35,262 bases of DNA from Candidatus Pacearchaeota archaeon (lineage in GTDB: Archaea; Nanobdellota; Nanobdellia; Pacearchaeales; GW2011-AR1). The DNA lies in contig JAWCQN010000007.1 of NCBI GenBank assembly GCA_038869755.1, forward strand, positions 1 through 35,262. The letters run 5' to 3'. Positions 30,001-33,000 of this stretch are shown in pieces. Position 1 is the stretch's first letter. Each line of letters begins with the position of its first letter. The position numbers were made by a program.

Positions 30001-33000
30001 ATATTTGGTACCAATAAGTGCAAAATATAAGATTAACGAATCTGACAATAAAAATGTGTTCAGTATAGACTTTGGATCAGATGGAGAGATGCCTGATAGG
30101 ATTATTGTTAATCCTTCTTTGAGAATTATATATGTTTCAAACAACAGGCGCATACAAGAGGCCGAACTTATTAGGGATGCTTATAAAAGAGCTTTTGGAT
30201 TAGAGTACCATATAGATTATCAAGTGCAATACCATTAAGTCCCTTTATTATTTTTGAAGGGCTTTTCTCTGTATTCTCTCTGTTTTTACAGGTTTTACTT
30301 TAGCAATATGTTTCTGCTCTTTGGCTTTTATTTCAGCCTGTTTTTCCATTGCTTCTGCAACAGCTACTTCTTTCTCTTTTTCATCCGTCTTTTCTTGCTT
30401 TATTTCTTCCTCTCTTTTTTCTTCAGCCTTTTCTTTTATCTCCTCTTCTGCCTTTTTTTCAGCCTCCTTCCTCTCTTTTTTTGATTTTTCAGCTATTTCT
30501 TTCGTTCTTTCCTCTCTTAATTTTTTATATTTAAGCTTATCTGGAAGATTAGATAAACTTACTGTTACTATATCATTAGATTTTTTCGCTTTTACTTTTA
30601 TTTTTGTTGGAGGATTTTGGATACCCCTAAACCACATTTCCTCATTTAAGTATTTATCAAGCTTAACTTTTTTTAAGTCCCTGTCAGGAATTCTCATGTG
30701 TTTGGCAATAAATTGTTTTATAGCTTTAATAGCTTTTGGAGTTCTCCTGTACTTTGGGACTTTGAGTATTTCACGTCTTAAATTAATGACATATTCTCTT
30801 TCATTTGCAGATATTTTATGTTTTTTTGCCATTTTATTTTCCGTTTTCAAGTATGTACTCTATTGTTTTGTTTATAGAATTAATTATTTCCTCGTTATTA
30901 CTTCCAATTACTATTGAAGGAGTGCCATGAATATTTGAGATAAGAATTAATGTTCCATATCCTTCATTTGTGCCAATACCATAAATTCCTCCACCATGAA
31001 TTACATTTCCTCCACAATATTTCTCAACTTTAAAATATTGGGCTATATTCTGGTCTTCTAGGTTACTTACTAAAGTGTTATAACTTTCTCTACTTATTTC
31101 TCTTTCCATTTTCATTTTATCCCAGATGTTTCTTTTTCATTCTTCTTGGTTTAATCTTTAGTTTAGTGATTCTCCAGTTTCGTCTTAATCTTGTTGTTGC
31201 AGAGGGGTGAATTCTTTTTCCAGTACCATACTTTCTAACAATAACCCAGAAAGGAGCCCACTTTGTGTGTTTACCTGCTTTTGCAAGTTTTATTTTCTTC
31301 TGCCTTTGTTTTTTTTCTACTACCATTATTTAATACTCTCCAAAAAAATTTTTCCTTTTTCCGTTAATTTTCGTCCTTTTGTTTTTCCCTCTTTTACTTT
31401 TTCTACAAATCCGGCTTTTTCAGCTTGTTGTAATATTACTCTGATAATTTTTCCAGATCCTTTCCTAAATTCTGCAGGTTTAACACCCCGGTTTTTTCTA
31501 CCTCCATATCTGACTTTTAGTCTGTTAACTCCCACAACTTTTTTGATATAAACCTGTTTTAGGATACTTGCAGCTCTTTTATACCAAAAATCCTCTTCAA
31601 ATGGGGGCCTTTCTCTTGCAACTGACGACTTCACATAAAAAGACCATTCTGGAGCTTCAAACTCGGGGATTTTTTTTAGTGCTTCAGCTAGTTTCCTGTT
31701 AAATTCTCTATGTTCTAAATCATATACCGGCATTTTTTTATTTTTTATACACCTCGCTTTGCAGCGATAGAACGATATAAATCGTTTAGTATGTTTTTTA
31801 TCTGTTAAATTAGATTTATAAATCTTTGGTCATCTCATGGCTTTTCGCCATTTTTTTATGAATATTGTAAAACCTAAAATTCTGTAAGTATAATTTTTTC
31901 CAAGTTCTTTAACAATTTCTTCAGCAGTATTTTTTATTTTTTTCTTGTCTCTTGTAAAACTCCTTAAAAGCACAATTTTTACATTTTGGCGGTTTTTAAA
32001 ATTAGTCCTTAAATTTTCAATTAAATTTTCATTCAGTCCGTTTTTTCCGATTTGTATTGTTGTTATTAATCTCATTTTTGATTTAAAATTTTAAATCCTC
32101 CTGTTGGAAGGGCATTTAAGATTTCGTCTAATGGAATTTCAAGCTTTATCGATATTTGTTCAGCGAATTTTTCTTTATTAATTTTTCCCGGAATTATGCA
32201 TATGGACCTTTCCTTATTTTTTTTGAATGGGACTGCCCTTATTTTGCCTTCCTGATTTGTTATGTAAAATTTAAGTTCAACTTTTTTTCTGTCAATTTCC
32301 CCGACTACTCCAAACGTTCCAGTTTTCATATTCTTATTTTTTATTACTTGTTCCATAAGGAAGGTATCTATATCTACTGATTTTTTTCCTTCTCTCCATG
32401 CTCTTGAAAAACATCCTGTAAATATAGCACACTCTTCAAGATCTTTTTCATTATACTTTTCTGATATAATTATTGAAAACGGGCTTCCCTGAGATTTAGT
32501 GTGCATTACCACATATTTTTCATTTGACATAAATTTTTTAACAAGTTCCTCATTTTGCTCGGCATTTTTTCCACCAACAACCAGATTATTATTAGAAGTA
32601 AAAAACCATCTGTATTTATGATACCACTTTTCTGTATTTTTTTTCTTATTAAAAGTGTTTAGAGTCATTATTTATCTTATAAATGGCTACTTTTAAGCTT
32701 ATCGTTCCTATTATAAAACTTAGTTGAGAAAAATTATTATCCTAAAGCCTCTAAAGAATTATCTATTTCATTGAAGATATCACCTGATGTTTCAAGATTT
32801 GAAAATTCTGAATCAGGTATGTTATCTATACCAGATCTCTCTTGTTGAGTTCCTGTTTCTTGCTGCGTTCCTGTACTTTCTTTATTTTTATTAAGTATAT
32901 AAAACCCAGTGATTAGTAAAGCTGCTATTAAGATTAATATTACAATTATCCAGACTTTTTTCATTCTGACATTACACTCCTGAATTCTTGTTTGAACTCT

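Follow-up and report, generated by a model that had tools for sequence, protein, structure and literature searches.

The window analysed here is a 35,262-nucleotide stretch of the genome of a Candidatus Pacearchaeota archaeon, and it carries a single-copy gene for ribosomal protein eL31 that lies downstream of eL39 in the eS19 cluster. The genes and the domain concerned are the following.

32072..32668, minus strand: protein with NFACT-R only, corresponding to the C-terminal part of RqcH/NEMF (Pfam)
31326..31733, minus strand: eS19, upstream member of the gene cluster, given as context (Pfam)
31117..31326, minus strand: eL39 gene, 69 aa (PF00832)
30834..31115, minus strand: ORF of 93 aa between eL39 and eL31, without Pfam family, for which no link to the system is claimed
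30248..30832, minus strand: eL31 gene, 194 aa plus stop, counted from the ATG
30554..30832, minus strand: globular core of eL31, residues 1-93 (PF01198 and AlphaFold2 model compared with archaeal eL31)

An earlier note had described this eL31 as a 194-aa protein with an arm of about 100 residues, and our re-reading of the ORF confirms that the arm is real. The PF01198 match is confined to residues 12-83 (59.9 bits, cut-off 25), the modelled core superposes on archaeal eL31 with an rmsd of 1.2-1.7 Å (Foldseek TM 0.87-0.89 by target), and the alignments to 58 solved eL31 sequences all stay within residues 3-90 of the 194-aa protein. Translation from a TTG six codons further upstream would make the protein 200 aa long, but the alignment of homologs begins at the ATG. 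In kinetoplastids the eL31 chains measure 169-188 aa, with the extra sequence at the N-terminus and the core at residues 70-156. The group of genomes compared below, called the order, is Pacearchaeales, which we infer from named relatives that are mostly Candidatus Pacearchaeota, Nanoarchaeota or Woesearchaeota.

The arm itself was divided with the help of an AlphaFold2 model of eL31, built with 100 homologs.

30308..30541, minus strand: predicted single alpha-helix, residues 98-175 (AlphaFold2 and charge profile)
30350..30382, minus strand: motif equivalent to M1 of eL32, described below, residues 151-161 (conservation in 100 homologs and profile comparison)
30308..30313, minus strand: K174-H175, end of the predicted helix (conservation in 100 homologs, mostly of the same family)
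30251..30307, minus strand: extended basic tip, residues 176-194, ending R-K-A-L-Q-K (AlphaFold2, 120 homologs, charge)

The predicted helix spans 78 residues, or about 115 Å, with a pLDDT above 90 to about residue 140 and of 77-85 to residue 170, and the tip that follows has no secondary structure in the model (pLDDT 57-64). From the core outward the arm is first basic, then acidic to neutral in the middle of the helix, and basic again at the tip, where the last 10 residues have a net charge of about +3; Pro and Gly are enriched 10-20 residues before the end, and the arm contains no cysteines. Across the 100 homologs E153 and K174 are invariant, and E151, K154, H175, R189, A191, L192 and K194 nearly so. 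A C-terminal Lys is found in 109 and an Arg at position -6 in 105 of the 120 listed homologs.

How general is this tip? Two sets of eL31 proteins were chosen by their cores, one from 90 order genomes (the 30 best core scores, own genome included, and 60 picked by us) out of the 147 that gave a match, and one from 34 genomes of other orders. The strict end R-x-A/S-L/M-x-K occurs in 46/90 of the former and 0/34 of the latter, and a profile test without composition correction is passed by 59/90 order arms and by 0/34 outside. A six-residue end pattern is present on 53/90 order arms, compared with 1.0% of shuffled arms and 5/642 proteins of the own genome. Ends of the type Y-N-x-x-S-R/Q are seen on 7/90 order eL31 proteins, with looser variants in further order genomes, and the tip is absent from eL31 in families f5 (0/5), f8 (0/4), f2 and f7; one order genome has an eL31 arm of 22 residues. 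The counts given in the earlier note (a mean of 188 +/- 5 aa, 34/40 ends of the form R-x-A/S-L-x-K, 21/40 exact QRKALQK) come out identically if the 40 best homologs include the query itself. The tip is not, as had been claimed, fixed as QRKALQK: among 120 listed homologs 99 end in R-x-A/S-L-x-K, and the exact form occurs in 29, with 2/40 among the last 40.

The tip profile found no match among solved chains at E<=10. Searched against 1.8 billion representatives, the profile, which is biased towards family f1, returned 40 matches, namely 17 with L31e, 2 with an unrelated domain (apparent chimeras) and 21 without a Pfam family; 26 of the 40 were inspected and are eL31 fragments or chimeras, and eL32 was not returned by this f1-biased profile. 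No stand-alone factor bearing the tip was seen among these matches, and the idea that the tip also occurs on a separate factor was rejected, as they are eL31, fragments or apparent chimeras. The ESM Atlas yielded solely eL31-like or unnamed archaeal clusters, below 0.9.

While the neighbours of eL19 were being checked in family f8, the module was first noticed on eL32. In 4/4 f8 genomes the tip sits on eL32 instead of eL31, and all four pass the profile test on eL32. The same test is passed by 0/4 f5 eL32 arms; R-K-S/T-F-E/T-G, a tip-like end and likely the tip, closes 3/4 of the complete eL32 arms in this family. We then have 55 order genomes with both eL31 and eL32, a set enriched for atypical eL31 ends, in which the six-residue pattern is on eL31 only in 20, on eL32 only in 7, on both in 2 and on neither in 26, most of the last showing visible end variants. 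By the profile test, 29/55 of these genomes pass on either protein and 26/55 on neither, the set being enriched for atypical tips. Most genomes of families f1, f3, f4 and f9 have an eL32 that is short or lacks the tip. The tip is visible on neither protein in G028, G012, G031 and G001, and the first three appear to be without the module. A profile of the module gave no match in five tipless genomes, in a run that included no positive control. Both proteins carry it in G005 and G044. The two proteins of G005 share 89% identity over their last 45 residues (the next best value among all modules is 60%), and 179/211 bases are alike, which points to a recent copying event from one gene to the other.

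Outside the order, eL32 ends in the consensus E-K-K-E-K-D-K-[VLI]-L-[TI]-K, here named M1, in 27/40 genomes, compared with 1.1% of shuffles. The arm there has about 60 residues and is predicted to form a helix from 127 to 194 (68 residues) that does not fold back; listed solved eL32 chains have 108-144 residues. Profile comparison relates M1 of eL32 to the EKEKILHK found in eL31 arms other than those of f1 (P=58%), the module pooled from f5 and f8 eL32 to both types of eL31 arm (P=89% and 65%), and these two types to each other (P=94%), with control arms of the same composition below 0.1%. The direct match between M1 and the f1-family eL31 arm is weak (P=0.7%), and the link to it runs through the EKEKILHK of the sister families. 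Where M1 is found in non-f1 eL31 arms, it sits 24-31 residues before the end in most of them. At the level of sequence, these data establish that the arm is not native to eL31 and is a transferable module with two carriers, between which it has been copied.

Sequence comparison also establishes that arm length is constrained only where the motif is present. Tip-bearing eL31 arms measure 95.7 +/- 8.3 residues (n=63), compared with 81.8 +/- 35.1 (range 1-134, n=34) for the mostly charged eL31 arms outside the order, so the near-constant length claimed for the arm holds for the tip-bearing ones and fails outside the order. On eL32, M1-bearing arms measure 59.6 +/- 6.7 residues (n=26, one case of a domain insertion left out) and motif-less arms 28.6 +/- 30.4 (n=59), and the tip-bearing arms of the order are, at 73-86 residues (n=9), about 20 longer than the M1-bearing ones. 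Rounded, the standard deviations are 8 (eL31) and 7 (eL32) with the motif and 35 and 30 without it. M1 is kept in G163 even though a folded domain has been inserted into the arm.

The charged arms of uS2, uS5, uL22 and uL11, which had been grouped with that of eL31, are present in this genome, but the grouping does not hold. Arms of uL22 are N- or C-terminal and variable in length and sequence (30 genomes), and those of uS2 and uL11 vary in length, side and sequence (5 genomes each); no common end motif was visible by eye in any of the three. The N-terminal arm of uS2 is almost missing in 3/5 relatives, and those of uS5 are variable within and beyond the order. We read all four as ordinary charged tails.

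The simplest history of the module begins with an old eL32 rod ending in M1, to which a basic tip was added on the stem of the order, after which it was copied to eL31 and lost differentially. The rooting of the order differs between programs: IQ-TREE (SH-aLRT 99.6) has f5 branching first, an arrangement that FastTree does not recover, and both are compatible with the AU test (p 0.89 and 0.11). We conclude that the module is real, under selection and apparently undescribed.

A second change concerns the neighbouring gene.

31120..31152, minus strand: C-terminal extension of eL39, 11 residues, found in lineages without eL37

The Pfam model of eL39 misses most eL39 genes of the order (8/30 found), and eL37 was rechecked with a phylum-specific profile. 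Full-length eL37 is present in 5/5 f5 genomes and was found by this profile in none of the remaining 146/151 order genomes, which gave 9 weak partial matches in other frames; outside the order eL37 is found in 42/46 (Pfam). After the Lsm gene, where G004 has eL37, the gap in the present genome is 114 bases. The residues of eL39 past a conserved Trp number 16-40 in 79/79 non-f5 order genomes, 8-10 in 4/4 f5 genomes and 7 in 33/33 outside the order. Two genomes outside the order, G167 and G291, have no detected eL37 and yet a short eL39, and are counter-examples as they stand; their congeners keep eL37, so the absence may be an assembly gap. The proteins eL37 and eL39 contact each other. We take the loss of eL37 to have been compensated by the extension of eL39 and not by the eL31 tip, although the association of loss and extension counts as a single evolutionary event. 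That the eL39 extension is an eL37 remnant was rejected (no profile similarity, P 0.2-1%), as was a fused eL37 remnant in the tip, which has no C4 zinc ribbon and sits on an arm without cysteines (hhalign probability 0.05-0.09%). In the accessible text of the sources, yeast 60S assembly needs eL37, a protein at the tunnel (PMC3561946), and eL37 is not among the non-ubiquitous proteins in the displayed head of a table (PMC9932298).

The earlier note proposed that the arm stands in for lost maturation or rescue factors, and here the evidence is divided. In the own genome, 546 of 802 called ORFs were scanned with Pfam (238 membrane-like or short ones were dropped, 2 were not referenced, and the window end was scanned separately). 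NAC, SRP54, FtsY, SBDS, prefoldin, aRF1, MetAP and DnaK/J are present, and the failure to find pelota, ABCE1, EF-2 and EF-1A in this incomplete assembly is uninformative. With a short model ABCE1 was found in 1/4 order genomes, and pelota was not separable from aRF1. In support of the proposal, Nog1 was found in 0/30 order genomes and 14/15 outside, aIF6 in 0/37 and 16/36, and the N-terminal half of RqcH in 0/30 and, above the cut-off, 15/15; the range of these losses equals that of the extended tip, provided that f5 has the tip. As both fall on one long branch, however, the losses and the gain of the tip amount to one event, and aIF6 is also missing in 20/36 genomes outside the order. Against the proposal, the older M1-type eL32 tether coexists with Nog1, aIF6 and RqcH outside the order, and NAC, SRP54, FtsY and SBDS are kept. 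Eukaryotic Nog1 is longer than the archaeal protein and carries a tunnel tail, for which archaeal Nog1, with frames of 313-368 aa, looks too short.

The reading that we favour, with a probability of about 40%, is that the module docks at the mouth of the exit tunnel with its tip inside the vacant tunnel. M1 would bind a fixed site on the large subunit within reach of both eL31 and eL32, and the order-specific tip would run beyond this site into a narrow, RNA-lined space. The last 19-34 basic residues would thread the empty tunnel C-terminus first, and a growing chain would push them out, so that the tip could serve idle or immature 50S as a tethered plug or a sensor of vacancy, much as the N-terminal tail of mL45 in mitoribosomes. 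A fixed site reachable from both anchors is suggested by the fact that the end motif is kept on a rod of fixed length whichever the anchor; a narrow RNA-lined target by the added part being basic, extended and fixed in its C-terminal residue. A length standard deviation of 7-8 residues is more easily reconciled with a fixed target than with one that diffuses freely. The failure to find Nog1, aIF6 and the N-terminal half of RqcH across the order also speaks for this reading. There are 19 residues after the predicted eL31 helix and 24-34 after M1; the exit tunnel is about 30-40 residues long, and eL32 is presumably within its reach. The notion of a built-in tether with a docking tip is better supported than in the earlier note, by the predicted single helix, the conserved end, the motif-tied length constraint and the movement of the module between eL32 and eL31, but the argument drawn from the position of eL31 at the tunnel rim is weakened, since eL32 bears the same module.

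Several points speak against a plug. The 78-residue helix exceeds what eL31 should need to reach the tunnel, and the arm length may come from copying rather than from geometric fit. The tip is evidently replaceable or dispensable, given the Y-N-type ends and the genomes without a tip on either protein, and having no sequence match to solved chains it has none to known plugs. The accessible text on mL45 describes an N-terminal tail that fills the vacant tunnel of the mitoribosome (PMC12045974), which is comparable in that a ribosomal protein's own terminal tail occupies a chain-free tunnel, as the eL31/eL32 module would; mL45 differs in being a mitochondria-specific protein with an N-terminal tail, no long helix and no exchange of anchor. 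The tails of Nog1, Rei1 and Reh1, according to the part of PMC5425277 available, enter the tunnel C-terminus first, and resemble the tip as terminal, extended, basic segments with fixed ends that come in from the exit side. They belong, however, to separate, transient eukaryotic assembly factors, to which the tip has no sequence match.

Alternatively, the tip might brace a reduced large subunit by binding, on its solvent face, to rRNA or to a ribosomal protein, and possibly fill part of the space left by eL37, a reading that we regard as unlikely. A basic tip on an acidic spacer of constrained length would suit such a strap. Full-length eL37 occurs in only 5/151 order genomes, all of them f5, whose eL31 is tipless, and in 12 genomes compared one stretch of 23S is about 35 nt shorter across the order, although no shortening follows the tip. 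In each of the 8 genomes that lack eL37 and have a short eL31 arm without tip, eL39 is extended by 26-38 residues. On the other hand, it is the eL39 extension and not the tip that goes with the loss of eL37, and neither shows profile similarity to eL37. Much of the apparent trade-off is gone with f8, tipless on eL31, having the tip on eL32, and f5 keeps eL37 despite its tip-like eL32 ends; the idea of the tip as a patch for eL37 loss was weakened once these two families showed the module on eL32. A strap should also tolerate a change of anchor poorly. A precedent for pinning rRNA is provided, in the accessible text of PMC5071889, by the kinetoplastid uL13-pin, eL33 and eL28, basic extensions that are likewise restricted to a lineage and patch up its remodelled large subunit. 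These are about 20 residues long and have no helical spacer, and the extra sequence of kinetoplastid eL31, being N-terminal, is unrelated.

It is in our view improbable that the end motif instead docks a soluble or membrane factor near the exit (NAC, SRP, MetAP, a chaperone or the translocon), in the manner in which the P-stalk tails serve GTPases. M1 is a short helix end, acidic and then hydrophobic, as is typical of protein contacts; it survives the domain insertion in G163, exchange of anchors would suit a recruiter, and NAC, SRP54, FtsY, MetAP, prefoldin and DnaK/J are all present as candidate partners. A diffusible partner, however, demands little length control, yet the standard deviation is 7-8 residues, and RNA would be the more fitting target for an added tip that is basic.

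That the rods link ribosomes or reach the small subunit, as a dimerisation or hibernation device or a bridge like those of eL19 and eL24, is very improbable. Both models, of eL31 and of eL32, show an isolated single helix, and the two anchors are, we assume, on the solvent side. A helix of 100-115 Å is comparable in size to the helices that eL19 and eL24 contribute to bridges eB12 and eB13 in eukaryotes, which are likewise long and charged, belong to archaea/eukaryote-specific proteins and reach a distant site (PMC9932298, accessible text). The predicted helices of 78 (eL31) and 68 (eL32) residues would share this single charged-helix form, but those of eL19 and eL24 each stay on a single protein and reach over to the small subunit. 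Least credible is a neutral or solubility-aiding tail like those of uL22, uS2 and uL11: these ribosomal proteins often bear charged tails, as does eL31 outside the order, and some genomes lack the module, but whereas uL22, uS2, uL11 and outside-order eL31 have the variable tails without end motif that define the ordinary kind, order eL31 and motif-bearing eL32 do not, and the frequency of the end motif (53/90, 1% in shuffles), the invariant arm residues, the length constraint and the reciprocal presence on eL31 and eL32 largely refute it.

If the docking of the tip in the vacant tunnel is put together with the gene losses, a fuller but decidedly tentative and, as a whole, rather doubtful account would be a covalently tethered exit-tunnel plug throughout the order, carried by eL31 or eL32. 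It would have arisen when a rod that eL32 bears across the phylum was extended, on the branch where Nog1, aIF6 and one half of RqcH were lost, with the near-universal tunnel-side protein eL37 lost afterwards and eL39 growing into its place. A minimal ribosome would in this way proofread or guard its own tunnel.

Our literature search, with subscription papers largely beyond its range, found neither the arms nor the loss of eL37 in the order described. The literature covered includes PMC9226512, PMC11354259, PMC7312649, PMC7804294, PMC13473441 and bioRxiv 2021.01.31.429008 and 2025.10.11.676729, and the main text of bioRxiv 10.64898/2026.05.13.725050, as far as accessible, makes no mention of L31, L37 or L39, though its supplements may tabulate the absence of eL37. 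One review, in the part available, describes eL31 as one domain that has neither extensions nor protein partners (PMC9932298).

A distinctive ribosome structure is predicted for this group, for which none is solved among the chains searched. The loss of eL37 together with the extension of eL39 indicates the extent to which reduced cells rebuild the tunnel region. Extensions of ribosomal proteins are usually bound to one protein and one position, whereas the rod described here has moved between two. A moving, fixed-length, motif-tipped rod in most of the phylum would suggest that the archaeal 50S has a binding site or function not yet described.

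A profile-based search did not find full-length eL37 in 146 of 151 genomes of the host's order, and in these lineages the C-terminus of eL39 is 11-33 residues longer. Family f5 of the order retains eL37, and its eL39 does not have the longer C-terminus. The features of the window considered here are:

30834-31115: 93-aa open reading frame between eL39 and eL31, without a Pfam family
31117-31326, minus strand: eL39
32072-32668, minus strand: RqcH, of which the NFACT-R part alone is retained

The host's eL19 (L060:15064-15453) has 130 aa, and eL19 of families f1, f3, f6 and f9 is without a basic segment inside the protein, some 10-15 residues long, that is seen outside the order. 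A short frame rich in Arg, Lys and Trp (L077:7372-7497) resembles an extended eL41 by eye, and has no Pfam match at 1e-5.

In seven f1 genomes (L020, L025, L028, L030, L175, L178 and L188) the eL31 arm is otherwise typical and ends in Y-N-x-x-S-R/Q-G/H in place of the usual basic tip, R-x-A/S-L/M-x-K. The eL32 of genome G163 (L285:828-1496) keeps its end motif despite a domain inserted in the arm, which we recognised by eye as helix-hairpin-helix-like. Three f5 genomes (L243, L244 and L247) encode uL22 with a long C-terminal arm and a His/Arg-rich, semi-conserved end; uL22 may thus be a third protein to bear a docking tip.

The 23S rRNA gene of the host (L100) is 2832 nt long. Near reference positions 1451-1650 the 23S is about 35 nt shorter order-wide, and in f1, f8 and f9 it is without a stem-loop of roughly 30 nt that occurs outside the order. 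The 23S genes of G012 (L219) and G154 (L228) carry insertions, of about 1,070 and 300 bases in G012 and 300 bases in G154, the large ones at one shared position. The insertions are probably introns.

Elsewhere in the 0.63-Mb host genome, the chaperone loci (L073:5791-13143 and L099:1055-2647) comprise a single cluster of DnaJ, DnaK, GrpE, Hsp20, a Cpn60 and Cpn10, and a separate thermosome-like chaperonin. Two genes with a diadenylate cyclase domain, of which one is DisA-like, are also present, as is a gene with a SET domain:

L076:16327-17388, L086:2193-2801, L068:4328-4834: the two diadenylate cyclase domain genes and the SET-domain gene

A full-length Pup-ligase family gene (L090:9311-10663; E 8.5e-91) is followed by a 60-aa frame without a Pfam family (L090:10721-10900), and the two may form a tagging pair of the Pup/UBact type, here in a DPANN archaeon.

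With regard to RqcH, matches outside the order occupy separate frames of about 310-450 aa and about 260 aa, and because of this the gene looks to have been split phylum-wide, with its N-terminal half apparently lost in the host's order.
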